Source: a phage. Taken from it: a stretch of 64,000 nucleotides of DNA. Below, piece after piece: positions 2,866-60,618 of the stretch (position 1 is its first letter; each line of letters opens with the position of its first letter). The position numbers were made by a program, and so were the translations under genes. The stretch is from sequence record PZ445432.1; one strand, written 5' to 3'. Under the pieces are notes generated by a model. The model was not told the origin of the DNA, ran no database searches, and saw nothing but the letters and a program-made list of their open reading frames with translations.

Positions 2866-5827
2866 CTAGCTCTGACATTGCTTCTTCTGCCATAGCCTTC
2901 TCTTCCTCTGTCATGAATTTGAAAGGAATTGGCATACACTCGATTTTACAATAGGTTCTGTACCAGTCTACGATATTCTCCGTGTTCATATCTTTACCAA
3001 TACCCATCATACCAAGATACATTCTAGCATATTTTGGGTTAGCACTCTGGCCTGTTTTAAGGAAGAAATCCTTTTTCTTACCTTTTAGAGCTTCTATGAA
3101 TGGTTTAATGGTTACATTTGAACACTTCTTAATGTCTTCCCAGAACATCTCGTGCATCTTATGAAAGAATGCAGCTCGATCATTTGGTTTATCTTTGATA
3201 TATTGTTCAACATGCTCAACTGTTACATCTTTAATAGACTCAAGATGATAATAGCGAACAATAAGTAGTTTAGCTTCATACGCATCAGCATGACGTGGAG
3301 CACAATAATCCGGAGTTGAATGTAGAATAGCTTTGATTCGCTCTTCTGTGTACTCTTTACCAGCACCTTCAATAGTTCCCCAGCTTTCACTGAAAATATC
3401 AATAGTTGCACCCTGATCAAGCAAGTAATAACGTAAAGTACTAGTATAGTTCCTAGATTCCAGCTCCCTGCGACGTGCGTATAATTGCTGTGCTAACTCC
3501 AGCCAACCCTCATCAATGTTATACTGTTCAGAACCTGCGGAGAATCCACTCGTAGATTTATCAATAAAATAATAAATGTTCTGAGCGCCACGGTCGCGCC
3601 TGATTGCTTGGAAACGCATGTTTGGCGCTTGATTACTGGTTCTAGTAATAACAAATACGTTATCAAAATAGTTGAAGTCAACTCCACTCGTTACGGATGG
3701 ACTACATAATAAGCAATCAATTTGTTGATCAATTAGCTCATTAGTTGTGTAATCCAGAATACGTCTAATATCCACATCTGATGTGGAGTTTGAGTGGATT
3801 TCCTTAACTAACGCACCAGTATTACGACGTAGTGCCATGCCCTTCTCATTCAGCTCATCAGGGCCACAATCAGATACTAGAATAGATTTCTCACCCATCT
3901 CTAGAGAAGTCTGAAGTGCAACCCAAATACTGGATTCATCGGGGAACTCATAAGCGTGAGCTTTTGACAGCATTTTACGGTGATGATTATAAAATGCTAC
4001 TGGTTTATCGAACTCAATCAAAGAACCATATGCTTCAATTGTTTCAGCACTAATATCACCATCGGATAGTATAATGATTTTTGCAGTTGCAAGAATATCA
4101 CGAAGAACCTGAATACACTCGCGACGTTGCTTAACAACTGGGGCGAATAATAGGTCATTCATTACTGCATCACATTCATCGATAAAGATTGCATCAATTT
4201 GACCAATAAAACTCTTAAACTTATGTAAAGAGTGGATAGTTGTGGACATACGGTCAATAGCACCACGCTTAAAATTAAGCATATCTACAGACTTATCATA
4301 TTGTCCTGCACTAAATTTCTTGGCATTTGAAGACACCAGTGCCCTAGTATTGGTAATTGCTAAGAAATTACCTTTAATAACTCCTGAATCTAACCAACGC
4401 ACAACTGCCGTGGTTTTACCTGTACCTAGACTTGCTTTTACAAAAGTCATATAACCTTCTGGTGGTACAGTGTTTAATTTCAAGAAGTTATCAGTTTCTA
4501 GAGAATTAGTTTCTAATTTTTTAAGTGGAACACCTTTTAATACTTCTGGGATCTCACGCTTAGAGTTATTAACAAAGGCTTTTAATGCCTGTTTTCGACC
4601 GTTATTAAAATAATCTTGAATATTACGACTATTATCTTTAGTTGCAATATACTCAGATAAAGCTGGGCGGATCTCCTTCTCTAGCCAACCAAAATCTACA
4701 CCATCCTCTAACGCTCGGTGATATAGCTTTGGAATAATACGTAGATATACACCATCCTCAGCCTCTTCTAACTCGCTAATGGTTTCTTCTACTTTATCAG
4801 AAGCAATCTTTTTGCCTTTAATTTGATCGAGTAAAGAGTAGAATTCCTCTTTAAACTCCCCTCTAGTTGTTTCATAGTCAACCAGATTATTAGGTAAATT
4901 TACTTTAGAACCCTTAACAAATACCAGACGTGAAGCACCCTCCGCTTTAAACGGATCAACTATACCATCAGTAAATAAAGGATCTGCAAAGTAATGGAGC
5001 TGTACGGAAGAGTAATAAGCTAAGTCGGCAATATCAAAGCCATACTTTTGTCTACTACTTTCATTGATAGATGTAAATAAGAACTTGATCTGACCCTGTG
5101 TAACTTTAACATTAGATTCTAGTATTAAGTGCATTCGGATACCTGGTTTTAGTCCAGCCGAAGACGATGCATGAGCAATAAACCCTGCATCAAGAGGAAA
5201 CATATCCTCACTAATACTATTCAACATTCTAATAATATGACGCGCCATGCCAACAAGATCAAACTTGTTACAACCTCCTGTATCTACAATACCATCCACG
5301 TCCATTGCAATTATATGACTTGGGTTAGATACATTAAAGTTGTCCTTCTTACGCCGCACATTATTTTTAGGTGCAAGACATCGACCTCGTACCGCAACGA
5401 TATGGGGGTCAGACGTTAAACGTCTCATAAGAGGGAGCATTTCTACTAGGGTTTGAGGATCAACTTCATCAATTACATCAAACTTGAAGGGCATTGAAGC
5501 TGGTTTACCTTCAGGATGCTTTGAGGAAAATCTTTTAGCAAAAAGATAATCTTCTGCTTTAACTTCTCGCCAATTGCCCGTGGCTAAATCGCGATGAAAT
5601 CCTGCATGACCTTGTAGGATTGAGAACACAACAATACTCCTGTGTTGGAAATGAAATAAGTTTTCTTTAGGACTATTCAGAAAGAATAGAACAACTGTTA
5701 CTGTCAATTTCTCAACAATTAATCGCAAATACTGAAGTGGGGTGGCAACTTCCACTTTCACGCTGCGCTGCTGCCTCATTATACCGCACAAATCCTTGAG
5801 GATGGCCGCTAAGCCGGATTTGCTCAC
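2840..5827 (-). CDS. putative SF2 helicase / replication origin-binding-like ATPase
   Basis: Walker A LGTGKTT, DExD-like IFIDECD, motif VI-like QAIRRDRG; N-terminal ~110 aa look non-protein-like, true start may be the internal ATG at 5494. Confidence 0.65.
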   Translation of the reverse strand: MSKSGLAAILKDLCGIMRQQRSVKVEVATPLQYLRLIVEKLTVTVVLFFLNSPKENLFHFQHRSIVVFSILQGHAGFHRDLATGNWREVKAEDYLFAKRFSSKHPEGKPASMPFKFDVIDEVDPQTLVEMLPLMRRLTSDPHIVAVRGRCLAPKNNVRRKKDNFNVSNPSHIIAMDVDGIVDTGGCNKFDLVGMARHIIRMLNSISEDMFPLDAGFIAHASSSAGLKPGIRMHLILESNVKVTQGQIKFLFTSINESSRQKYGFDIADLAYYSSVQLHYFADPLFTDGIVDPFKAEGASRLVFVKGSKVNLPNNLVDYETTRGEFKEEFYSLLDQIKGKKIASDKVEETISELEEAEDGVYLRIIPKLYHRALEDGVDFGWLEKEIRPALSEYIATKDNSRNIQDYFNNGRKQALKAFVNNSKREIPEVLKGVPLKKLETNSLETDNFLKLNTVPPEGYMTFVKASLGTGKTTAVVRWLDSGVIKGNFLAITNTRALVSSNAKKFSAGQYDKSVDMLNFKRGAIDRMSTTIHSLHKFKSFIGQIDAIFIDECDAVMNDLLFAPVVKQRRECIQVLRDILATAKIIILSDGDISAETIEAYGSLIEFDKPVAFYNHHRKMLSKAHAYEFPDESSIWVALQTSLEMGEKSILVSDCGPDELNEKGMALRRNTGALVKEIHSNSTSDVDIRRILDYTTNELIDQQIDCLLCSPSVTSGVDFNYFDNVFVITRTSNQAPNMRFQAIRRDRGAQNIYYFIDKSTSGFSAGSEQYNIDEGWLELAQQLYARRRELESRNYTSTLRYYLLDQGATIDIFSESWGTIEGAGKEYTEERIKAILHSTPDYCAPRHADAYEAKLLIVRYYHLESIKDVTVEHVEQYIKDKPNDRAAFFHKMHEMFWEDIKKCSNVTIKPFIEALKGKKKDFFLKTGQSANPKYARMYLGMMGIGKDMNTENIVDWYRTYCKIECMPIPFKFMTEEEKAMAEEAMSELGARNDSEE

Positions 5828-15419: not shown

Positions 15420-15448
15420 AAGGAGATCTTCGGGTCTCCTTTTTCTTT
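15420..15448 (+). terminator. rho-independent terminator
   Basis: ggagatcttcgggtctcc hairpin followed by tttttcttt. Confidence 0.6.
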
Positions 15449-19409: not shown

Positions 19410-19452
19410 TAAAAATTCAATTGCTTAAAGCCCTCTAATTTAGTATAATATT
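19410..19452 (+). promoter_or_regulatory. conserved early sigma70 promoter
   Basis: aaaaattcaattgcttaaag...tagtataat. Confidence 0.55.
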
Positions 19453-19476
19453 CGTATTGAAAGTGAGGAGGGCTTT

Positions 19477-30953: not shown

Positions 30954-30992
30954 AAATTCATTTGCTTTCCCTCTTATTTATTGTTATAATAT
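30952..30992 (+). promoter_or_regulatory. conserved early sigma70 promoter
   Basis: aaaaattcatttgctttccc...ttgttataat. Confidence 0.55.
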
Positions 30993-31020
30993 TTATATAA
31001 ATTAATGAGAGGGAAACCAA

Positions 31021-32829: not shown

Positions 32830-32870
32830 AATAATTCATTTGCTAAACCTCTCTTTTCTTGCTATAATAT
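32830..32870 (+). promoter_or_regulatory. conserved early sigma70 promoter
   Basis: aattcatttgctaaacc...gctataat. Confidence 0.55.
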
Positions 32871-32898
32871 ATTTATAAATTGATGAGAGAGGTTTGAA

Positions 32899-49225: not shown

Positions 49226-50065
49226 GACTCCTAAGTTTCTAGGAAATTGATAAGCACAAATTCTAGAGATCGCACAAAAATATTCATCGGATTTGCACAT
49301 ATTCTAGGAAATTGATAAGTACAAAAATATTCATCGGATTTGCACATATTCTAGGGCAGTTTCTCTCAAACGTTACACATACTAGGCGGTTAATATAGGG
49401 CGGTTATAGGGAGGGCGGTTATTTCTAGGAGACATTTTTTGAAAACACATTTCTGGATTTTACTGTCGGATTTGCACACTGCATTTCTAGAAATTTATGG
49501 TCGGATTTGCACAAACGCCTAAGTTTTTAGGAACATATAATCTCTTGAAAATGGCAGCATTATTTCGGGCCGAAGGCCCATGATTGCCTGAGTTTTTAGA
49601 GCCACAGGAATTTTCACTTGTCAAGCTATTTTGCCCCATTTTGCTAATAAAATTTTACTTTTTCTGCACCTATCTCAAATTTCCCCAAATTATCTCAACT
49701 CTTCCCCAAAACCCCGCAAATCAGGTGCTCCGCACCAATCCTGCGCCCACACCATTCTAGCCTCCCAAATTTCTCTCGCTCTCTCATCTTCTCCTCAAAC
49801 CTATACAATCACACACCCTCTCATCGAAGTCACAAAAATTTCATCGGATTCGCACAAATAAACCCATGTCGGATTTGCACATATTCTAGCTAATTCCACA
49901 GGATTGATGCGCAGCATCGGATTGCTGGAGTTTTTGGGAAAATTCGTCGTCGGATTCGCACATCACAAAAGTTTTTAGGGTCGGATTTGCACACTACCAA
50001 AAATTGTCGGATTCGCACATACACGCCCGCACGTAACACCCGTGGAGCAATGTCGGATTTGCACA
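49226..50065 (+). repeat. array of ~12 direct copies of core tcggat(t/c)(t/c)gcaca, some inside longer ~50-bp repeat units
   Basis: repeated atcggatttgcacatattctag, gtcggatttgcacactgc, gtcggattcgcacat and similar, all on one strand. Confidence 0.7.
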
Positions 50066-50071
50066 AAAGCG

Positions 50072-50089
50072 CAGGGCAATTGCCCTGCG
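50072..50089. repeat. 18-bp perfect palindrome gcagggcaattgccctgc
   Basis: read directly. Confidence 0.7.
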
Positions 50090-50094
50090 ACTTT

Positions 50095-50335
50095 GAATGA
50101 GAATCATTATCATTTAAGAAGTGGAATGCAAATGATAATTATTCTCATTTAAGAAGTGGAATGATTCTCATTTAATAAGTGGAATGCAAATGATAATTAT
50201 TCTCATTTAAGAAGTGGAATGAGAACTATTCAAGAAGTGAAACGATTCTCATTAAAGAAGCGAAACGATTCTCATCCTAGAAAGGGAATGCAAATGATAA
50301 TGATTCTCATTTAAAAACGGAAGTGAGAAACACTG
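50095..50335 (+). repeat. tandem degenerate repeats of (g)attctcatttaagaagtggaatg
   Basis: about 8 copies with variants aagaagtgaaacg / aagaagcgaaacg / aaaaacggaagtg. Confidence 0.7.
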
Positions 50336-50344
50336 TTATTTAAG

Positions 50345-50452
50345 TTATCCACAGACTTATTAACAGCACGATTTGACTTGACAGAATCCTAGCCATTTTG
50401 AGGCGTTATCCACAGACTTATCCACAGCTTATTCTACTGTATAAATATACAG
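50345..50452. repeat. left inverted module with three DnaA-box 9-mers (TTATCCACA) and 16-bp palindrome ctgtataaatatacag
   Basis: ttatccaca at ~50345, ~50406 and ~50418; palindrome at 50437-50452. Confidence 0.7.
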
Positions 50453-50648
50453 TATTCCTACGCAGTGAATAATTCTAATATAGGCCTAAAACGTCCTGAA
50501 TCGCATTCTAGCGCGTTTTATTTTGGCGGGGATACTAAAACAAGGGCAAAACTGGAGGAGGCTTAGAAATTAGTTAGCTCGCTAACGATCACACAAGGCG
50601 ACACGTAACACCCTAATCATTAGCAGGCTAACCATCGCGGGCGCGGTC

Positions 50649-50669
50649 AAATGAGAATCATTCTCATTT
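50649..50669. repeat. 21-bp palindrome aaatgagaatcattctcattt
   Basis: read directly; related to the gattctcattt repeat unit. Confidence 0.6.
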
Positions 50670-50709
50670 GAGGATTGGGGGCACTTCCTGATAATTGCCC
50701 CCGTGATTA

Positions 50710-50904
50710 TTAGTCCGGTAATTGATGCGTGATCTTCTCCTCTTCCCCGTAGGAATCGACTAAATGCTGATAATAACCATCATGATCATAAATGACTTTA
50801 TCATATTCGCCCAGCTCGACCGCTTGCCGGTTTTCCGGAGTATCGGGCACATAAAAAACGTCAACCATTGTGGTAGTTTTGGTCACAATAATTTTATCGC
50901 TCAT
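50710..50904 (-). CDS. hypothetical protein
   Basis: ORF from track. Confidence 0.45.
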   Translation of the reverse strand: MSDKIIVTKTTTMVDVFYVPDTPENRQAVELGEYDKVIYDHDGYYQHLVDSYGEEEKITHQLPD

Positions 50905-50919
50905 AATAACGCCCCGTTA

Positions 50920-51114
50920 TTAGTTGACTATCTCAAAGATAGCGTTCTCAAGTGTCGCCCTTAGGATCCCATCGCGCCCTACTACGGAATACTTGAGATC
51001 AGGTATTTTGTAACGCTCAATTGCTTTGAGTAATTGATCTTTTTGGGCTTTATATTTTTGCCCTTCTCGCGCTATCGTGTCGCCTTCGGCTTTAATGCAA
51101 ATCAGTGTAACCAT
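50920..51114 (-). CDS. hypothetical protein
   Basis: internal ATG preceded by AGGGGG RBS; track ORF extends to 51201. Confidence 0.45.
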   Translation of the reverse strand: MVTLICIKAEGDTIAREGQKYKAQKDQLLKAIERYKIPDLKYSVVGRDGILRATLENAIFEIVN

Positions 51115-51396
51115 AATAATCCCCCTAGTAAATATATTTTTGCCAATAGCGGCGAACGTTATCGCCACCAGCGGAATCATTAGCTGCCTTACTATTACCA
51201 ACGAAAATATATAATCTCATTAGTATTATTTTCCCCGCATTAATTTATACATAACTAACATCCCGCAAAACTGACCTAAGATAGTGCAGACAACAAGGGA
51301 TAACACAATATTGCCTATGGTGTTATAAGTAACCACACCAACAATAAGGGATAATGCATACCCTAGCAGGGCAATATAAACAGCCATATTATTTAC

Positions 51397-51732
51397 CTAT
51401 TTTCGAAACGCTGTTTCAATACTATCAGCCGTGGATTGAATATACGCGCCTTTCATTATCAGGCGCTCGGTGCATACTTTGCGAAAAATATTAATAAAAT
51501 CATCTTCATTTTCTGCGATTAACGCCTCCCCCATGACCTGAATATCACACGATGCAAAGGTCAAAAATTGAAACGCTAGTTCACGGGCGACGACCGCATT
51601 AATTTTATAATGCGCCTTTCCATCGTAAATATTAACAACGCCCTTATATTCAGGCGAAAGCTGATTTAAGTAGTTTGCTAATAATCCCGGGCGGCAATTA
51701 GTAACAAAGCGATTCCCTTCATAAATTACCAT
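51397..51732 (-). CDS. hypothetical protein
   Basis: ATG preceded by GGGAGG RBS. Confidence 0.5.
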   Translation of the reverse strand: MVIYEGNRFVTNCRPGLLANYLNQLSPEYKGVVNIYDGKAHYKINAVVARELAFQFLTFASCDIQVMGEALIAENEDDFINIFRKVCTERLIMKGAYIQSTADSIETAFRK

Positions 51733-51855
51733 TTTATAACCTCCCAATCAGATAGCCAGATAAAAGCATAAAAATCCCCAGCGAACTAGGGTCATTCTTA
51801 AACAAGGTGGCGGTAAAACCGCCAACCATTGCAAGGATAACAACAATAACGCTTT

Positions 51856-52068
51856 TCATAGTACCCCACGAAACGCAGCGTAAAAGGTGGCAAAGTGTCT
51901 AACCGTTTCAGCTATCACGTTGCCGCGCTTATCGAATTTTTTCTCGGTAACACGAAAGGCGTTTTTATTCCGTGCTACATATTCGATTTTACAATCTTCC
52001 CGCTCGAACGTGTTAACGTCCACCAGCTTAAAGCCTTTGGAACGAGCAAGGGAAACATTACGAATCAT
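51856..52068 (-). CDS. hypothetical protein
   Basis: ORF from track. Confidence 0.45.
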   Translation of the reverse strand: MIRNVSLARSKGFKLVDVNTFEREDCKIEYVARNKNAFRVTEKKFDKRGNVIAETVRHFATFYAAFRGVL

Positions 52069-52070
52069 TT

Positions 52071-52259
52071 TTATTCTCCTTTACTATTCATGCAGCCCAG
52101 CAGATAAGAAAATACAGCGACACCCGCGCCAATAATAACCATAGGTTTAGTATTTGCTAAACTGCAATAAGAATCCTGAATACCATAAGCGGTGGCGAAA
52201 AGAGTCAAAATAGCGCCCAAGATACCTGCTAAAAAAGCCCGAAAAATAACCATTTTCAT
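52071..52259 (-). CDS. small membrane protein
   Basis: two hydrophobic helices. Confidence 0.4.
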   Translation of the reverse strand: MKMVIFRAFLAGILGAILTLFATAYGIQDSYCSLANTKPMVIIGAGVAVFSYLLGCMNSKGE

Positions 52260-52299
52260 TCTCCTAGTTAGTGGGGCGAAAGTAGCGCCCCGTTATTAC

Positions 52300-52530
52300 T
52301 TACATTAAAACGATTTTGGCGGCTTGTTTTTTGGTGCAATGTTCTGCTTTCAGGGTATCCAGCAAAAAGCCCGCCGTTTGCTGATCGATTTGATCATTAT
52401 CATAAAGCGCCTGAATGGTAGTGTAAGTTTTAGCAATGCCGTATTCTTGCACCATTTCTTGAATGATCCAGCGATTTGATACCCAGCCTTTTCCAGTGAA
52501 AAGATGACTAGCAGAAGAATAAGCAACCAT
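52300..52530 (-). CDS. hypothetical protein
   Basis: ORF from track. Confidence 0.45.
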   Translation of the reverse strand: MVAYSSASHLFTGKGWVSNRWIIQEMVQEYGIAKTYTTIQALYDNDQIDQQTAGFLLDTLKAEHCTKKQAAKIVLM

Positions 52531-52648
52531 TATAAGCCTCCAAAATTTTTTGGGAAATTTTCAACCGTCCTCAAACGGTGTAAGGGCATTATAACAAAAA
52601 GGCCGCCATAATCGGCGACCTTTACAAAACTTTACATTAGATTATTTA

Positions 52649-53641
52649 TTACTCGTTTTCGGTGTTAGTGGTAAAAGTAGAAATATCGATACCTTTTACC
52701 ATTTCATCAATCATCTCAGCGATGTTAAAACTTTGCACCATTTCCAACATTGCCGCTTCCATAGCCGCTCCTGCTACCGCTTTCGCTTTCTGGTTATTCG
52801 GGGCGTACTGGTCAACCGCTACACTCAGCAGGTTAGCGATCACTACTCGACCGATCGGCGTATCAATATAGCCTTTAATCATAAATGGCGCTTTTTTAGC
52901 CGCTACTTTCGTGATTTGAGTTAGTGCAATTTTACCCGCTTCCAGTTTTGCAGCATTTACAACAGCGGATTTATTAGCGGCAACGATGTTAGCGATCTTA
53001 GTCATGGTATTTTTTCCTTTGTTTTCAGTGGTTTGAGTGTTAACGCTTTGAGTGTTAGAATTTACAGCATGTTTTTCTATATTGTCAATAGGCTGATCTT
53101 CATCTTTCCAGAAAGAAAAGCCCGCGCTTTCTATATCCCCATCGTATACGTATGGGTATACTTCCGACGGTAGCAAAAAATTGCCATCATCATCAAAGGC
53201 CATTACAGCCGCCAGACGATACCCGTCACCGATTGACCGATTCCAGCCAACTGATAAATAACGCCAAAATGAATCAAGAAAGTTTTCAACGTCATAAAGA
53301 TCCTTATCATAAGGCTCATAATTTTCTATTGAAAAAACTTCTAAGCCCGCCCCAGCATCATAGGCTTTTACTGTGCTACCTTTTACGATTATGAAATCAG
53401 TGTCCGGCCCCCTACTAGTAAGCAGGTGATTATCCCTATTATATAAGATAATAGTTGCCCCTTGCTTATATAATGGTAGAAAACTACTCATATCATAGGC
53501 GTCGAAATCATCAAAAAAATTCTGGTGAATATCTTCGGCCTTGTTAACAAAGTGCTTAATGCTGGTTGTTCTGCTACCGTCCAGCAGGTTGCGCAGCGCA
53601 CCTTTTAAGACGGTTGCGTTATCTGGTTTATATAGCCTCAT
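52649..53641 (-). CDS. hypothetical protein (330 aa)
   Basis: ORF from track; largest gene in the inverted-repeat-bracketed block. Confidence 0.55.
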   Translation of the reverse strand: MRLYKPDNATVLKGALRNLLDGSRTTSIKHFVNKAEDIHQNFFDDFDAYDMSSFLPLYKQGATIILYNRDNHLLTSRGPDTDFIIVKGSTVKAYDAGAGLEVFSIENYEPYDKDLYDVENFLDSFWRYLSVGWNRSIGDGYRLAAVMAFDDDGNFLLPSEVYPYVYDGDIESAGFSFWKDEDQPIDNIEKHAVNSNTQSVNTQTTENKGKNTMTKIANIVAANKSAVVNAAKLEAGKIALTQITKVAAKKAPFMIKGYIDTPIGRVVIANLLSVAVDQYAPNNQKAKAVAGAAMEAAMLEMVQSFNIAEMIDEMVKGIDISTFTTNTENE

Positions 53642-53907
53642 TTGTTGGCCTCCCTCGTTAATCGGTGAGTGAATGATAAAGGCAATTTTCTAGCATAGGC
53701 AAATATTATTTTACCTTTTTATTTTCCTTGCCTAGCGCCTAGTTTTATGCTAACCGCGCAGCGGTACAGTAAAGAGCAAAACACGGTGAAGCCACCAGGC
53801 CGACGCGTTGAGGCTTTACTTTAATATTACCCCACTGCGTTTAGCTCGTTAGAAAGCGATTTAGGCCGCTTAAAATTGATTGCAGTTGTTAACACTACCT
53901 TTTTACC

Positions 53908-54015
53908 CTGTATATTTATACAGTAGGATAACCTGTGGATAAGTCTGTGGATAAGCCCTTATATCGCCGCCTATTGTGTCAAATCATTTTGTGCTGTGAT
54001 TAAGTCTGTGGATAA
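53908..54015. repeat. right inverted module with three DnaA-box 9-mers on the opposite strand and palindrome ctgtatatttatacag
   Basis: tgtggataa at 53934, 53946 and 54007; palindrome at 53908-53923; reverse complement matches the left module. Confidence 0.7.
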
Positions 54016-54039
54016 CTTAAATGATAGTTTTTCTCACTT

Positions 54040-54420
54040 AGGCCGATAGTTTCTTATAGTGATTATTTTTATAGTGATTATTTTTATAGTTATTATTTCT
54101 CATTAATTTATATGTATATTATATAATATGAAATAGTTAGTTGGCTAATGAGATTTTACGGGATTAGTAGTCTGCTAATGGTTCAGGCTGTTACAATCCA
54201 CCAGCACGATTATCATTCTAGTAATTATTAGTCTGCTATCTTTCTAATACACAACAACAAATAAAAGTCAATTAATTAATTTTATAAAATAACTCATTTA
54301 GTCTTGATTTTTAAAAGTCAATACCTTTTACAACTATTTTTCAATTTTGCTTTTATTAAATATTTGTTAAGTCGAAAATAAGCCGCCTAAAACGCCCTAG
54401 AAAGCGGTAAAATTTTCAGG
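54040..54420. repeat. AT-rich region with short direct repeats (ttatagtgattattttta copies; agtctgctaa copies)
   Basis: read directly; adjacent to the DnaA-box module. Confidence 0.55.
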
Positions 54421-54765
54421 TATCCCATCATAAGGGGATAGCCCGTTTATCGTCACCTGATGGATTCTAGAAAAATCAAGTAGGGCAAGGCAAATATAAG
54501 TGAAAAAATTACTTGCCTATCTGCTATGTTTTGTGGTATCCGCGCGCCCGTTTCCTTTAAACTTGGGCAATCGCCGGACACCTTGCTTTCTTTACATTTC
54601 TTTACAAAAATAAGGTTGCGCCATTTTTGGTATTTGCTATTATTTACCTCGTAGGGCGGCAATGACGAACTACACGGCGGGAAGTTTACCGCCGCGCTCT
54701 TTAAAAATTGGGTATATCTTAAAGTCTATCGGCGGCAAACTTATACATTATAAGGAATCGCAGAT

Positions 54766-54969
54766 ATGAAACAAACTTTATTGATCACTGGCAAGCCAGC
54801 TAAAAAACTGGATGGCAATACTAGAAAGCTGTTGACAGTAGCGCAAAGATCAGTAAAATATCGATTTAAGCAGTACAAGAAAGGCCGCCAGCAAGGTCTA
54901 GAAATGATCTGGCGAAATATTATGATCGACCTAAAGGAAAATCATAAAAAACTGCAAAAAATTGTTTGA
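54766..54969 (+). CDS. hypothetical basic protein
   Basis: AAGGA RBS. Confidence 0.45.
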   Translation: MKQTLLITGKPAKKLDGNTRKLLTVAQRSVKYRFKQYKKGRQQGLEMIWRNIMIDLKENHKKLQKIV

Positions 54970-55134
54970 CAACCTAGCCGATAGGCTTTAAGATGTACCC
55001 AGTTCGATAAGAGCGATAACTTGATACAATTTGACGGCCGGTACTTGCCATAATGTGCCCCGCCCCCTAACTGGGATATAGCGGCCCGCGTGGAGTTCTT
55101 TAAATTGATTATATTGGCAAGCGGATTTTTTCTT

Positions 55135-55160
55135 ATTACCTGCTAGAAAGTAGCAGGTAA
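55135..55160. promoter_or_regulatory. palindromic operator-like site ttacctgctagaaagtagcaggtaa
   Basis: perfect 11-bp arms around a 4-bp centre, ~40 bp upstream of ORF 55198. Confidence 0.4.
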
Positions 55161-55197
55161 TGCGGAACAATCCACTAAATAAACTGGAGTTTATACT

Positions 55198-55449
55198 ATG
55201 CAAAACATTACTAATGCGCCGAAAGTTGGTCAATCCGTTTTTATCCCTTTCGTTACTAAAACGGACGAGGCAACCGGAAAGGCCGAACGCATCAAAGGCG
55301 CGGCGCTTATGCCGTTTGATGTGATTGATGCGGTATACGCTGAAACGGAACAGAGTAACAACGGGAAAACCGTTTTTAGCGTTCGCGTTAAATCCGGCGA
55401 CGTTGTAAAGGTTGCCCAGCGTAACGAAAAATGGGAAGCTGTAGCGTAA
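55198..55449 (+). CDS. hypothetical protein
   Basis: GGAG RBS. Confidence 0.5.
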   Translation: MQNITNAPKVGQSVFIPFVTKTDEATGKAERIKGAALMPFDVIDAVYAETEQSNNGKTVFSVRVKSGDVVKVAQRNEKWEAVA

Positions 55450-55552
55450 TATAGTGTTAACTTTATATTCCCCCAGTAGTTCGGGGGGAATATAACGATT
55501 AACATTATGTTAATCATTTAATCCCTTAAATTAAATCGATAGGAGCTATATC

Positions 55553-55969
55553 ATGACTAACGTTAAAGCCGAAAAATCCGCAAAATTTGCTTGGAATGAA
55601 GAAAACACCCAGCAGGCGGTTACTATGTATCAGCAGTTAATTAATGAAAACGGATTAGATTTTGCAAATAGCGACGGTTTAAAAGAGATTGCGAAAGCAG
55701 TTGGCGCGGCTTCTCCCGTGTCCGTTCGGTCAAAATTGACCAGCGCGAAAGCCTATCAAAAAAGCGATAAGCCGCGCAAAGTTGGCGGCGGCAGTTCAAT
55801 CCGCAAAGCGCATTACGTGCGCGTTATTGCAAAACATGCCATCGATTCCGGCATTATCAAGGACGCCGATGATCTGGCATCACTGGAAAGCGCAAAATTA
55901 GAAACGTTGGACGTCGTGGCGCAGATGTTAGGCGTTGCCGATGAAGTAAAACAAGCCGCAGGCGAATAA
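55553..55969 (+). CDS. hypothetical protein
   Basis: ORF from track. Confidence 0.5.
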   Translation: MTNVKAEKSAKFAWNEENTQQAVTMYQQLINENGLDFANSDGLKEIAKAVGAASPVSVRSKLTSAKAYQKSDKPRKVGGGSSIRKAHYVRVIAKHAIDSGIIKDADDLASLESAKLETLDVVAQMLGVADEVKQAAGE

Positions 55970-56058
55970 TAGTTATATCTTGCCCCTTCTAGCGAGGGGG
56001 CAATAATATAACTGTTTAGCGATAGTTATTTTCTTCCCCTAAATCAGGAGTTTTAAAA

Positions 56059-56256
56059 ATGATCTTTTACCCTACTGAATCGCTCATTCTAGGATTATTT
56101 ATTATGGCGGCCTCATTATTGTTTGCTTATTTCCAAAATGATCTGGATTCGTATTATTTTAAGCGCAAAGCTAAATTAGCAAAGCGGTTGGGCTTACTTT
56201 GCTTAATTGCCGCCGTTGCTTGTGGTGTTAGTTCTAGCCTGATGCCGATTAGTTAA
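56059..56256 (+). CDS. small membrane protein
   Basis: two hydrophobic helices. Confidence 0.4.
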   Translation: MIFYPTESLILGLFIMAASLLFAYFQNDLDSYYFKRKAKLAKRLGLLCLIAAVACGVSSSLMPIS

Positions 56257-56353
56257 ATATCGCAAGTTATAACGCCTATTATTTAAGGCGTTATATCTGG
56301 CAATATTGCCAATAACAAACGTTTTTTAATCCCTTTAATGGAGTTTTATTATT

Positions 56354-58024
56354 ATGGTTATTTCCGCAGAAAAACAAACCCAGATCCTCAACCTTGCCGC
56401 TGATTTCAATTTCTATGGTAAACGTCTGCGCGCTACTAAGCTGGAAGTTTGTGACGATATTTCAAAAGCTGTTTATGATACGCCGAAACATTCCACCGCT
56501 ATTTGTGACTGGTTGGAAGCAAATAAACCAGCGAAACCGAAAGCGGCGAAAGTAGCAAAAGCCATAAAAAACGATGACCGCCCTGAAGCCGCTGGAGTTA
56601 TTTCTAGCACGGTGGAGCAATGGGAAGTAAAACAAGGCAAACGCTTTATCATTACATCGATTCAGAATAATACTTTCCCGCATAAAAACTTTTTGGCCGC
56701 GCTTGAACAATATGCCCAATTTATTGGAGCTGATTTGCTGGTTAGCAAGTATATTTATAATAAAAACGGTTTTCAAAATGGGGAAGGGGCAGACGGAATC
56801 AAATATGATTCTGCATTTGACAAATATATTTGCAGCAAAAACGTGTTTTTAAATAACCGCCGCTTTGCTTTCATGGCTGAAATTAATGTTTTGCCAACCG
56901 CAGATTATCCGCTATCTGGATTTGCTGAAACTGCAACCGCGCTTAATCTGGAAGGTCTGGCAATTGGTCACGCTAAAATCACCGCCGAAAGCGTGCCAGC
57001 TTTAAAAGGTGAAGTAGTGCGCCGCATGTATTCAACCGGAACGGCAACGCTAAAAAATTACATTCAGCAGAAGGCAGGGCAAAAAGCGGAAGCGTTACAT
57101 AATTTTGGTGCGCTGATTGTCGAGTTCGACGAGGACGGAGAATTTTTTGTTCGCCAGCTTGAAACGATGGACGAAAGCGGCGTTTTTTACGATTTGAATA
57201 TTTGCGCCACTCCCACCGGATGCTATGAAACAACGGGGCACGTTTTAGGTTTACAGTATGGTGACATCCACGCTGAAAAATTAGATGAAGAGTGCGCCGC
57301 TGCATCATGGGGGCATGGTGATACCTATGGGCTTGTGGATATTCTCAAACCAAAATATCAATTCGTCCATGACGTGCATGATTTTACATCACGCAACCAT
57401 CACAACCGCGCCTCCGGTGTATTCCTAGCAAAACAGTACGCCGCCGGACGTGATAAGGTTCTGGATGATCTTATCGATACGGGGCGCGTACTGGAAGCAA
57501 TGGAGCGTGATTTCTCTCAAACAATCATTGTTGAATCGAATCACGATCTGGCGTTATCCCGCTGGCTTGATGATCGTAATGCTAACATTAAAGACGACCC
57601 AGCAAACGCGGAACTATATCACCGCCTGAATGCCGCGATTTACGGAGCTATCGCAGAAAAAGACGAAACCTTCAACGTGCTTGATTATGCGTTGCGCAAG
57701 GTTGCAGGTTGCGAGTTTAACGCCATTTTCCTAACGACTGACCAATCTTTCAAGATTGCAGGCATTGAATGCGGCGTACACGGTCACAATGGCATTAACG
57801 GGAGTCGTGGCAATCCTAAACAGTTTAAGAAATTGGGCAAATTAAACACGGGGCATACTCATACGGCAAGCATTTACGGCGGTGTATATACCGCTGGCGT
57901 TGCTGGTAGTCTGGACATGGGTTACAACGTTGGCGCGTCAAGCTGGACGCAAACGCATATTATTACCTATGTAAACGGTCAGCGCACTTTGATTGACTTT
58001 AAGAATGGTAAATTTTTCGCATAA
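56354..58024 (+). CDS. A1: pre-early protein A1-like (metallophosphatase-like motifs)
   Basis: 556 aa as recalled for T5 A1; GDIHAE and GHNG...GHTHTA motifs; synteny with A2-like and dmp-like genes. Confidence 0.7.
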   Translation: MVISAEKQTQILNLAADFNFYGKRLRATKLEVCDDISKAVYDTPKHSTAICDWLEANKPAKPKAAKVAKAIKNDDRPEAAGVISSTVEQWEVKQGKRFIITSIQNNTFPHKNFLAALEQYAQFIGADLLVSKYIYNKNGFQNGEGADGIKYDSAFDKYICSKNVFLNNRRFAFMAEINVLPTADYPLSGFAETATALNLEGLAIGHAKITAESVPALKGEVVRRMYSTGTATLKNYIQQKAGQKAEALHNFGALIVEFDEDGEFFVRQLETMDESGVFYDLNICATPTGCYETTGHVLGLQYGDIHAEKLDEECAAASWGHGDTYGLVDILKPKYQFVHDVHDFTSRNHHNRASGVFLAKQYAAGRDKVLDDLIDTGRVLEAMERDFSQTIIVESNHDLALSRWLDDRNANIKDDPANAELYHRLNAAIYGAIAEKDETFNVLDYALRKVAGCEFNAIFLTTDQSFKIAGIECGVHGHNGINGSRGNPKQFKKLGKLNTGHTHTASIYGGVYTAGVAGSLDMGYNVGASSWTQTHIITYVNGQRTLIDFKNGKFFA

Positions 58025-58079
58025 TTAAATTATTCCCTAGCGGCTTGAAATATAGCCGCTATTACAGGAGCCACAAAAA

Positions 58080-58370
58080 ATGAAAATTAATTTACCTAGC
58101 AATGAATTTTCCCCTAAAACTTCTTTACTAGATGATATTTCTTATCAAGATGCTTATATAAATGAGGAAGTATATCGCGCTTGTTCTGACCTCCTAGAAT
58201 ATCCCGATTATCCAATCTATAAAGGTGATTTCATTATACCCGTTTATAATGGTGTGCTAGTAGTAGGCAAAGCTGGGGTTATTGTTATAGATAGTTGTAC
58301 ATTGTCACAAGAAACGTTTAAAGTGCCACTAGAGTTAACTAATTATTCTCCTAGTATTACAGTACAATAA
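58080..58370 (+). CDS. hypothetical protein
   Basis: ORF from track. Confidence 0.45.
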   Translation: MKINLPSNEFSPKTSLLDDISYQDAYINEEVYRACSDLLEYPDYPIYKGDFIIPVYNGVLVVGKAGVIVIDSCTLSQETFKVPLELTNYSPSITVQ

Positions 58371-58407
58371 ATTAAGTCCCTTATTAAACTAATTGGAGTT
58401 TATAAAT

Positions 58408-58800
58408 ATGAAAAAGCAAAATATCCCATTCGATCGCGCTCAGTCTTCTATCGTTCTGGTTTATTCTAATGGTGCGCGGTATCACGTCGAGGCCGGTCAC
58501 GTTGTCGATGACTTAATCGAGTTTAATGACGTTTTGCAGGTTACTACTTTCGCCTATACCACGGGCAAGCTATCCAGCCGCATCAAGGCGAAAGGCGTTC
58601 ACATTGACACGATGAAACAAGAAACCATCATTATTGACGCGGTAAAATCCGGCCTAGCCTTTGCAGTTGTCGCGCCTTGCCCCGCTTGCCTTGATGATCA
58701 GCTAATGAGCGCAAAAGTATTTACTTGTGCGGGGATTCGTTCCGATGTATCAGGTGAAGATATTAGTTTTATCGCTGATGCGCTGGCTTATGGTCTTTGA
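58408..58800 (+). CDS. A2: pre-early protein A2-like
   Basis: ~130 aa between A1 and dmp; start at ATG after GGAG RBS. Confidence 0.5.
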   Translation: MKKQNIPFDRAQSSIVLVYSNGARYHVEAGHVVDDLIEFNDVLQVTTFAYTTGKLSSRIKAKGVHIDTMKQETIIIDAVKSGLAFAVVAPCPACLDDQLMSAKVFTCAGIRSDVSGEDISFIADALAYGL

Positions 58801-58880
58801 TAGTTGATTTATTATTGCCCGCTGATAAATAGCGGGCAATGCTGGATAAACTAAATCCCTTTAATGGAGAACGTAACAAA

Positions 58881-59615
58881 ATGAATCAAGTTAAAACGAA
58901 TATTACCCGTAATTTCCCGCATGTTTCCCGCGTCATGATCTGGGATCTGGATGGCACTATCGTTAACTCATTCCATCGCGTAGCGCCTTGCTTTGATAGT
59001 GATGGTAATCTAGATCTGAATAAGTATAAAAATGAAGCGTGCAAACATGATTTAATAATGCAAGATACTTTATTGCCGCTTGTTACATATATGCGCCAAT
59101 GCATGAATGACGCAAATACTTTAAACATTATTTGTACCGCTCGACTGATGAGCAAGTCGGACTATTATTATTTGCGCAAACAAGGCTTGCGAGGGCGTGG
59201 GAATAGCAATATCCGTGTATTTTCCCGCGATACACTGCATAAGTATTTTGAAGCTGATAAAGTTAGCGAAATATACCACAGTAAGGACGCAGTTTATAAA
59301 AGCCACTACTTTGAGTTATTTAAGCAGTTATATCCGAACGCTGATTTCACGATGATAGACGATCATAAAGGTGTGCTAGCAGCGGCGGCATCATACGGAT
59401 TTAAAACGTTGGACGCGCAAGCCGTTAACGATATTCTATCAATCGGTGTTACATTGATAGGCGAAACCTTTATCGACGAATCTCTTGAGGATGATAATGA
59501 TTATCAGTTCCTAGTCGATCGCTTGCAATTATGTTGGGAAAGTATGACCGAGGAAGAACGCGCAGAATATAGTTGCAGCCCGCAACAATATATCGAGAAA
59601 CTAAAAGTTGCATAG
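58881..59615 (+). CDS. dmp: 5'-deoxyribonucleotidase (HAD family)
   Basis: MIWDLDGTIVNS HAD motif I; 244 aa from the internal ATG with GGAG RBS. Confidence 0.7.
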   Translation: MNQVKTNITRNFPHVSRVMIWDLDGTIVNSFHRVAPCFDSDGNLDLNKYKNEACKHDLIMQDTLLPLVTYMRQCMNDANTLNIICTARLMSKSDYYYLRKQGLRGRGNSNIRVFSRDTLHKYFEADKVSEIYHSKDAVYKSHYFELFKQLYPNADFTMIDDHKGVLAAAASYGFKTLDAQAVNDILSIGVTLIGETFIDESLEDDNDYQFLVDRLQLCWESMTEEERAEYSCSPQQYIEKLKVA

Positions 59616-59630
59616 TAATTAAAGTTGATA

Positions 59631-59670
59631 TTGTTTCACCTTGCAATTAAAATGGTTGCAAGGTGAAACA
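59631..59670. terminator. 15-bp perfect inverted repeat hairpin between convergent genes
   Basis: tgtttcaccttgcaa ...10 nt... ttgcaaggtgaaaca; no T-tract. Confidence 0.45.
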
Positions 59671-59790
59671 GTTAGCATGATAATAGTAACGGGGGTGGCG
59701 GTTAGCAGACTAAGTATTTTCGCCCAGCCCACTGCACCCACCCACGCGTACGTAATCCAAAGAATTTGGCAAAAGTCATTTTAGCGCTAA

Positions 59791-60330
59791 TTACCTGTTT
59801 AATTGGGCAACGTCTGGTATACTTCCTTTGAACATCTCCTGTATTGCAAAGTCACCATGAAATGTCCTTCTTAGTAAATTTGCATAATTTACGGCATCTT
59901 CTAATTCGCTATAGGGAAAGTACTTAGTAGTGCCCCTTATCAGCCCCTGTTTATCGTGTAATCTTACCATCCACTTCTGAAGTTCTTTATGCCATGTAAC
60001 ATTTAGATAGCCTGATGATGCTCTTGAGATTCTGCCATTATGATTATTCTCTGTAATTGAAGCCTCTCTTAAATTTGACCATCTATTATTTAGTTTATTC
60101 CTATCTATGTGGTCTACACATTCCTCTGGCCATCTATTCTCCATAATAACAAAAGCTACTTGATGTGCATAAGCTTTAAACCCTCGATACTTGAGCTGCC
60201 TATATCCCCTATTTAAAGTACCTGCTTCTTTACCCTTACGATTGCCGCTTTTCCAGGTAAAAACTCCAGTTTCGGGGTCATAAGCAAATACTTCTTGTAT
60301 TTCCTGTATATTTAGATTATTCTTCACCAT
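59791..60330 (-). CDS. HNH homing endonuclease
   Basis: VDHIDRNKLNNRWSNLRE HNH signature; N-terminus paralogous to the other HNH ORFs. Confidence 0.7.
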   Translation of the reverse strand: MVKNNLNIQEIQEVFAYDPETGVFTWKSGNRKGKEAGTLNRGYRQLKYRGFKAYAHQVAFVIMENRWPEECVDHIDRNKLNNRWSNLREASITENNHNGRISRASSGYLNVTWHKELQKWMVRLHDKQGLIRGTTKYFPYSELEDAVNYANLLRRTFHGDFAIQEMFKGSIPDVAQLNR

Positions 60331-60372
60331 GAACCTCCATGTGTAATCTTATGAAATTTGGCAAAAGTCAAA

Positions 60373-60618
60373 TTAGTGCATAGAAGGGTCATCAAACCTG
60401 TGTTCTGGTCTAAACTCACGGAATCTCTTCCGCGACGCCCGAGAACCATCATTCCACTCCCGTTCAAACTCCGCACGTTTCTCATCGAACTTCCGCTCCC
60501 TTTCCGCAATCTCCCGCGATACTTCCGCAATATATTTACGATGCCTGTCGATAGCCGCAGTCATCCCGAAAACTCCCGCAAGTACCCCGATAATAAAAGC
60601 AATTATAATACTAAACAT
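60373..60618 (-). CDS. membrane-anchored hypothetical protein
   Basis: N-terminal TM helix then charged region. Confidence 0.4.
   Translation of the reverse strand: MFSIIIAFIIGVLAGVFGMTAAIDRHRKYIAEVSREIAERERKFDEKRAEFEREWNDGSRASRKRFREFRPEHRFDDPSMH

Follow-up and report, generated by a model that had tools for sequence, protein, structure and literature searches.

The rightward pre-early operon of a T5-like phage is punctuated by strong hairpins that lack a T-tract: six of its seven genes are followed by one, 1-15 nucleotides (nt) past the stop codon, with a stem of 8-21 bp and an A/U-rich loop of 5-10 nt (H1 to H6, Table 1). The operon lies at 55198-59615 (+) of a 64,000-nt stretch of sequence record PZ445432.1 (the window, by which the whole stretch analysed is meant), and it corresponds to the classical T5 pre-early, or first-step-transfer, operon A2-A1-dmp plus small open reading frames (ORFs), in the orientation opposite to the usual T5 one. 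In T5-like phages the operon (A1, A2, dmp) belongs to the leading 8% of the genome and is expressed while the remaining DNA has yet to enter the cell. The window is from Escherichia phage HildyBeyeler (Bas33, MZ501074; Demerecviridae, Tequintavirus), with 100% identity across 54800-59400. The hairpins are not canonical intrinsic terminators, and the way in which they vary among related phages indicates that the selected object is the stem-loop in the sense-strand pre-early mRNA. The explanation that we favour, with about an even chance of being right, is that they are intercistronic stem-loops that are read through and act as barriers to 3' exonucleases or as segment boundaries.

Hairpins after pre-early genes

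RNA folding of H1-H5 gave energies of -14.7 to -26.8 kcal/mol, with z scores of -3.3 to -5.9 relative to 200 dinucleotide shuffles, of which at most one folded as well for each hairpin. These are the five hairpins that a preliminary description of the DNA had listed, and all of them are present within a few bases of the positions given there, with strong folding energies. The list was incomplete, as it left out the equally strong H6 after dmp and a leader hairpin at 55135-55161, and the first stem, described with six C, actually has five. That every gene is followed by a hairpin holds for six of the seven and fails for the 96-aa gene: its junction with the 130-aa gene (58371-58407, +) folds with -2.8 kcal/mol (z +0.2) and is the sole junction of the operon without a hairpin, which is likewise absent there in relatives. 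The regular punctuation attributed to the pre-early genes is found in the rightward operon and does not extend to the divergent leftward pre-early unit (50710-53641, -), in which nine tightly packed genes are accompanied by three hairpins, two without T-tract and one canonical. The possibility that the six hairpins of the operon form a repeated family was rejected, since a repeat search found them to be unrelated in sequence.

The absence of T-tracts, which had also been claimed, was confirmed. A TransTerm-type tail score was calculated on the 15 nt past each stem, with a tolerance of up to 7 nt for where the stem ends. Scores were 2.3-3.6 for the pre-early hairpins, compared with 3.5-5.35 (mostly >4.5) for 11 canonical terminators elsewhere in the window, such as those at 15420 (AAGGAGATCTTCGGGTCTCCTT-TTTCTTTG) and 39027 (GGCGGGAATACTCCCGCC-TTTTTAGG), and a terminator scan called no intrinsic terminator at H1-H5 on either strand. 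The operon hairpins therefore have the G+C-rich stem-loop just past the gene that is expected of an intrinsic terminator, but not the U-rich run of about 7-9 nt immediately 3' to it, their tails holding 0-3 T in 8 nt. Given that some 11 terminators made of a hairpin and a T-tract are found in the early region of the same phage, the lack of T-tracts is not a genome-wide property. Terminators serving the opposite strand were ruled out, as the stems also lack a T-tract on the minus strand.

Conservation, covariation and strand bias

With A1 as a handle, 57 loci were collected from IMG/VR, of which about 35 are distinct T5-like phages, including T5 itself and the Pectobacterium phages DU_PP_V and My1 (65-68% A1 identity), and Klebsiella Sugarlandvirus and two Vibrio phages were added from GenBank. 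Hairpins were found after the homologues of the 83-aa, A2, 65-aa, A1, 130-aa and dmp genes in every T5-like phage and in Sugarlandvirus, mostly with 2-3 T in the 8 nt that follow. The stems have changed in two modes, by compensatory substitution and by wholesale swap for unrelated hairpins at the same position. At H1, pair 16-36 is CG, UA, AU or GC among 14 relatives, and 98.7% of the cells are paired versus 92.0% in shuffles, with none of 500 shuffles reaching the observed pairing or covariation score. Three pairs of H6 show a CG/UG/UA series, H5 shows AU/GC covariation at pair 14-34 with U.G intermediates, and H3 occurs as ACGCC/GGCGT, ACGCTG/CGGCGT and ACGCTG/CAGCGT, with unrelated stems at the same place in the Pectobacterium phages. 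As for swaps, H2 has two classes, and many relatives, T5 among them, carry the second, an unrelated 22-nt hairpin (TAGTGGGGAATATTCCCCACTA); for H4 the stem classes number at least five, several of which carry a common loop (TTGAAATATA) on different stems; and H5 and H6 have four and two classes, respectively. That the position is kept while the sequence of the stem is free favours a role of structure and disfavours a site for a sequence-specific protein.

Perfect palindromes can fold on both strands, whereas G.U pairs work in the RNA of one strand only. In 109 unique hairpins, 159 G.U pairs were counted in the sense strand versus 39 in the antisense strand, and the sense fold was the more stable in 81 and the less stable in 23, the difference averaging 2.8 kcal/mol (Wilcoxon p 2e-11, a value that overstates independence because the sequences are phylogenetically related; the three most variable junctions agree in direction). 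Counts in the named structures gave U.G and not A.C for one-sided changes within helices. The bias and the nature of these changes thus argue for selection on the stem-loop in the pre-early mRNA. The preliminary description had suggested RNA-processing sites, attenuators or factor-dependent terminators; the compensatory changes, the conservation of position and the strand bias uphold its view of the hairpins as RNA-level signals in general, and do not tell those three functions apart.

The small hairpin I13 downstream of H1, whose 5' arm has GTGTTAAC (55454-55461) as an alternative partner, is near-invariant in relatives and consequently gives no covariation signal. Mutually exclusive pairings were seen in the flanks of two of the hairpins: around H1 (55454-55515, +), GTGTTAAC (55454-55461) or ATGTTAATC can pair with GATTAACAT, and around H3 (56260-56312, +) either TTGCAA... 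pairs with TTGGCAA or the mini-palindrome GGCAATATTGCC forms. These flanks are near-invariant in relatives too, so that covariation cannot test the alternatives. Distant A1 homologues in metagenomic contigs (L042-L058) were uninformative, because gene order is not kept and the genes are followed mostly by ordinary terminators or by nothing. The exception is an AT-rich contig (L044, IMGVR_UViG_3300033141_001972; 44% A1 identity), in which the same perfect palindrome of 36-38 nt (ATATAAGCATATTAGAATATTCTAATATGCTTATAT) follows two different genes (at about 1784-1822 and 3665-3700), and further palindromes without T-tract are found after A1.

Promoters, read-through and transcript levels

A consensus scan of the + strand found only two intergenic promoter-like sites matching at least 10 of 12 positions, both upstream of the operon, and no such site in the intergenic gaps within it. 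Their T5 counterparts, P-H22 and P-D/E20, are the sole promoters annotated there in two T5 records (AY587007 among them), with none inside the operon. The idea that every gene is a separate unit with a strong internal promoter of its own was therefore ruled out. A 9/12 match at 55980 falls within H2, where the TTGCCC...AATAAT of the stem probably generates it incidentally.

Efficient intrinsic termination by E. coli RNA polymerase needs a U-tract. Since three to five hairpins that lack it precede A1 and dmp, with no known promoter between, substantial read-through is required. RNA-seq values for Bas33 (PMC13250531, Dataset S1; genes bas33_0178-0185, window 54766-59615) are 12199, 5207, 1171, 4925, 1143, 4425 and 2218 transcripts per million (TPM) from the 83-aa gene to dmp, and 1232 for the 67-aa ORF bas33_0178; they refer to 20 min post-infection and to the per-gene maximum group mean of two conditions, and short ORFs are possibly under-counted. 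The low values are thus those of the 65-aa and 96-aa ORFs inside the operon and of bas33_0178 upstream of promoter 2. Because the profile is a saw-tooth and not a monotonic fall, it cannot be the outcome of stepwise termination of transcripts from upstream promoters. Together with the location of the promoters, it weakly favours read-through with differential stability of segments over stepwise termination; with RNA 3' ends at the stem bases it is compatible, but it is not specific to them.

The favoured explanation would then work as follows. Host RNA polymerase would transcribe a pre-early operon of about 4.7 kb from two strong tandem promoters (54832 and 54966) and would mostly pass the hairpins, so that A2, A1 and dmp could all be expressed from upstream. 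Each stem-loop may block 3'->5' exonucleases such as polynucleotide phosphorylase (PNPase) and RNase II. Where an endonuclease cuts in the A/U-rich spacers, or where transcription ends past dmp by run-off or Rho-type termination, the upstream cistron would be left with a protective hairpin at its end. Segments of the polycistron would in this way acquire different lifetimes. What would be expected of a protective 3' stem-loop, namely a stable stem without a U-rich sequence after it and selection in the sense RNA, is what was found. H6 is a case in point: the left end of T5 DNA is 68 nt past its equivalent, and transcripts of the left repeat run off the T5 template, so that a protective hairpin would be needed there and a terminator would not.

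Beyond H6, a C-rich and G-poor tract (CGCCCAGCCCACTGCACCCACCCAC, 59716-59750, +) begins about 50 nt past the hairpin, near the place expected for the left end of T5; similarity between the window and T5 stops after TATTTTCGCC at 59722. The tract could be the boundary of the terminal repeat or a Rho-loading site for transcripts of the right-hand copy of the repeat.

Alternative explanations

Several points weigh against exonuclease barriers, and the limits of the RNA-seq values given above are one of them. TPM does not follow the strength of the hairpins, since H3 and H4 have similar energies and their genes differ 4-fold. H2, which of all the hairpins comes closest to a terminator in its tail (UUUAGCG), and H3 (UUAUAUCU) have borderline, partly U-rich tails, and weak internal promoters may escape a consensus scan. 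At the A2 junction, the Pectobacterium phages have a canonical terminator (AAGCCGCTA...TAGCGGCTTTATTTCTTTTT; GCCCCT...AGGGGCTTTATTTCTTGTT) and Vibrio phage D149 has an inner stem GGCA..TGCC followed by a T-tract (TTTTATTAAC); judging from these relatives, the T5 hairpins could be weakened terminators that still terminate in part. Besides, neither maps of RNA 5' or 3' ends nor transcription starts were found for T5-like phages in the searchable literature.

Some of these points are shared by the possibility that the hairpins are leaky or factor-assisted terminators, that is, attenuators acting unaided or helped by NusA, NusG, Rho or a protein of the phage, for example A1, which would grade expression along the operon and possibly contribute to the A1-dependent pre-early shut-off. 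The placement directly past stop codons is that of ordinary terminators, the tails of H2 and H3 score 3.6, the TPM drops from 12199 to 5207 and 1171 across the first three genes, and H6 already bears a terminator label in AY587007. We nevertheless regard attenuation as unlikely: four of the six tails hold at most 2-3 T in 8 nt, the E. coli enzyme needs a U-tract for efficient intrinsic termination, TPM recovers at A1 (4925) and once more at the 130-aa gene (4425) without an intervening promoter, and the essential A1 and dmp lie beyond the hairpins. Cleavage by RNase III into monocistronic mRNAs, as in the early region of phage T7, would fit the layout of a host-polymerase early operon with a hairpin in nearly every intercistronic gap (six of the seven junctions) and no terminator features, and stems of 19-21 bp, some of them bulged internally, are formed by H1 (extended), H2 and H6. 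Typical RNase III substrates span roughly two helical turns, well above 8-10 bp. A duplex of about 20 bp is formed only by those three, H3, H4 and H5 having only 8-12 contiguous bp, and relatives fill the same positions with perfect hairpins of 8-10 bp (TAGTGGGGA-ATAT-TCCCCACTA; GCCGGGGC-AATT-GCCCCGGC). The loops are moreover large and A/U-rich, and no covariance model of Rfam 15 matched 50000-60500 on either strand at E <= 1. Processing by RNase III therefore seems improbable to us.

Comparably improbable is an action chiefly on translation, in which the hairpins would insulate initiation regions or transiently occlude the next Shine-Dalgarno (SD) sequence, possibly with the TCCCTT box described below, setting translation rates or uncoupling neighbouring cistrons. 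It draws on H4, whose fold has an outer pairing of UUCC (58033-58036) with the GGAG of the next gene (58067-58070) that occludes its SD, and which has in relatives a class that pairs anti-SD and SD perfectly (AATCCTCCAATTAAT...ATTAATTGGAGGA); on the hairpins that sequester SDs at early promoters of the same phage; and on a conserved TCCC box that most junctions have between the hairpin and the SD. For H4, a role in translation is plausible. In five of the six cases, however, the hairpin ends 25-60 nt short of the SD and makes no contact with it, no gene follows H6, and pairing between box and SD outside H4 is limited to about 3 bp. It can also be asked whether the elements are DNA-level palindromes (protein sites, cruciforms, or recombination or module boundaries of the first-step-transfer DNA) and not RNA signals. 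They are near-perfect palindromes, two of them annotated by Wang et al. merely as such, and the class of hairpin covaries with the gene cassette after A1, which makes the junctions mosaic boundaries. The stems are, on the other hand, mutually unrelated and freely changed by compensatory substitution, which argues against a common DNA-binding protein, and neither the 159:39 strand bias of G.U pairs nor the lack of A.C intermediates in the helices would be expected of DNA elements; we consider this extremely improbable.

The TCCCTT box

A conserved box, (A/T)ATCCCTT(T)AA, is found 4-15 nt upstream of the SD at nearly every gene of the rightward operon. It occurs within 45 nt before the start codon in five of the seven operon genes (six of the seven with a copy at -47) and in three of the 104 other genes of the window (Fisher p 9e-6), and four of the 10 occurrences of TCCCTT on the + strand of the 64-kb window are operon boxes. 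Relatives, one of the Pectobacterium phages among them, have kept it as well. A local anti-SD stem formed by the box was not convincing except at H4, where the UUCC of the pairing described above belongs to the box. The box may matter more than the hairpins. Hairpin, box and SD could even make up a three-part module, the cis target of a dedicated post-transcriptional switch, in which the hairpins would decide which fragments survive, although we hold this to be very improbable; by analogy with RegB, which acts at GGAG in T4 early mRNAs, an example would be the long-unexplained A1-dependent pre-early shut-off, working through an endonuclease or RNA-binding protein.

Table 1 Features of the pre-early region (positions in the window)
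Feature	Position	Strand	Description
H1	55463-55495	+	-23.4 kcal/mol, z -5.2; 14 nt past stop of 83-aa gene; no T-tract
H2	55970-56014	+	-26.8 kcal/mol, z -5.8; interrupted stem of 21 bp, starts directly after A2 stop
H3 (TATAACGCC...GGCGTTATA)	56268-56295	+	-18.6 kcal/mol, z -4.1; after 65-aa membrane protein gene, followed by mini-palindrome GGCAATATTGCC
H4 (TAGCGGCT...AGCCGCTA)	58038-58061	+	-14.7 kcal/mol, z -3.3; 13 nt past A1 stop
H5 (ATTGCCCGCT...AGCGGGCAAT)	58814-58840	+	-20.7 kcal/mol, z -5.9; after 130-aa gene
H6	59630-59672	+	-26.6 kcal/mol; 20 bp, 15 nt past dmp stop; no T-tract
Leader hairpin (ATTACCTGCTA-GAAAG-TAGCAGGTAAT)	55135-55161	+	Between promoter and first ORF; extended fold -27.7 kcal/mol; inverted repeat I2
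Small A/U-rich hairpin (GATTAAC-ATTAT-GTTAATC)	55497-55515	+	Inverted repeat I13
TCCCTT box	55522-55527	+	Upstream of A2 SD
Sister box (TCCCCT)	56035-56040	+	
Sister box	56330-56335	+	
Sister box (TCCCTA)	58034-58039	+	
Sister box	58377-58382	+	
Sister box	58856-58861	+	
Tandem promoter 1 (TTGACA-16-TAAAAT)	54832-54859	+	11/12 of sigma-70-type consensus; counterpart of T5 P-H22/T5P2
Tandem promoter 2 (TTGACA-17-TAAGAT)	54966-54994	+	10/12 of consensus; counterpart of T5 P-D/E20/T5P1; overlaps inverted repeat A
67-aa ORF	54766-54969	+	bas33_0178; upstream of second promoter
83-aa ORF	55198-55449	+	T5.007 homologue
A2	55553-55969	+	
65-aa membrane protein gene	56059-56256	+	
A1	56354-58024	+	
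96-aa ORF	58080-58370	+	
130-aa ORF	58408-58800	+	T5.002 homologue; ATG start given here, annotated start is TTG at 58393
dmp	58881-59615	+	
Hairpin without T-tract (GGGGCGCTACTTTCGCCCC)	52273-52291	-	-11.7 kcal/mol, tail score 2.26
Hairpin without T-tract	50677-50702	-	-14.3 kcal/mol, tail score 2.26; after last gene of leftward unit
Canonical terminator	52598-52623	-	Only canonical one in leftward unit

Other features of the window

A 28-nt inverted repeat (I1, 54706-54733/54977-55004), with 89% complementarity and its arms 243 nt apart, flanks the 67-aa ORF and overlaps promoter 2; it corresponds to the T5 'inverted repeat A/A''. In the early region, two typical T5 early promoters (TTGCTT/TTGCTA...TATAAT) are found inside hairpins, at 30969-31013 and 32848-32892 (+), and possibly another at 19429-19474. 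Of the two arms, the 5' one (CCCTCT) falls within the promoter spacer and the 3' one (AGAGGG) constitutes the SD of the next gene, so that read-through RNA would mask the SD and RNA initiated at the promoter would not, which resembles a control of the T4 lysozyme type.

Compared with MZ501074, 5041 bp of the tRNA-gene region are missing from the window, with the junction at about 28550, and the two are otherwise 100% identical (window position 1 is 43049 of MZ501074, and window positions >28600 are record positions minus 48089). The laboratory stock used in PMC13250531 has an offset of 9744 bp in the same region; in view of both, deletions in the tRNA-gene region seem to recur.

Previous annotation and implications

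Three of the hairpins were already marked in the T5 record AY587007 (Wang et al. 2005), in which the equivalent of H6 is a 'putative rho-independent terminator' (69-105), that of H5 is 'palindrome A' (899-925) and 'palindrome B' (3697-3718) is H2 in its short form; the sequences of these features were confirmed to be the counterparts of H6, H5 and the short H2. No function is given there to palindromes A and B, H1, H3 and H4 are unannotated, and neither the pattern nor the missing U-tracts nor the covariation were noted. Repeats and palindromes of the injection-stop region were treated by Davison 2020 (bioRxiv 866236), with no mention of terminators, hairpins or intergenic regions, and in the papers on BF23 and AKFV33 predicted terminators were merely counted. 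In the literature on T5-like phages that was covered, which does not include the review of Davison (2015), we found no account of the punctuation pattern, of the lack of U-tracts or of covariation.

Compared with the T5 record, what is added here is the regular pattern, the lack of U-tracts and the covariation. As regards annotation, hairpins such as that at 69-105 of T5 should not carry the label of Rho-independent terminator. The hairpin set and the operon-specific box provide concrete cis-elements for the poorly understood balancing and shut-off of pre-early expression, and their exact coordinates can be used to look for RNA ends in Bas33 RNA-seq or Term-seq data.

Comparison with known systems

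The canonical intrinsic terminators of the early region of this phage resemble the operon hairpins in consisting of a G+C-rich stem-loop right past the stop codon, and differ in having a U-tract and tetraloops in place of the larger A/U-rich loops. The operon hairpins, unlike them, have essential genes downstream with no known promoter between. Among intercistronic hairpins, the repetitive extragenic palindromic (REP) elements of malEFG act as stabilisers; these belong to a repeated sequence family, which the operon hairpins do not. The T7 early region is closer in layout, as it is a host-polymerase operon with strong tandem promoters and a hairpin in nearly every intercistronic gap. RNase III cuts these hairpins (R0.3, R0.5, R1, R1.1 and R1.3), and the retained 3' hairpin stabilises the upstream mRNA. 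The T7 sites, however, contain an internal loop and are at least some 20 bp long, whereas half of the T5-type hairpins have 8-12 bp, and there is no sequence similarity between them.

In E. coli, stable stem-loops that have no U-rich tail mark, and also protect, the 3' ends of those transcripts that are Rho-dependent (Dar & Sorek 2018, PMC6061677). The operon hairpins are like them in being stable, in lacking a U-tract and in lying just past coding regions, and both are exposed to the same host and decay machinery; those of the host stop PNPase and RNase II and thereby set where transcripts end at steady state. The operon hairpins differ in being phage-encoded and internal to a polycistron, at six of its seven junctions; a downstream rut site is conceivable solely after H6. 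The hairpins are real but a fairly ordinary kind of element, and if they are simply exonuclease barriers they would be an ordinary finding and a clean phage example of a known host mechanism.

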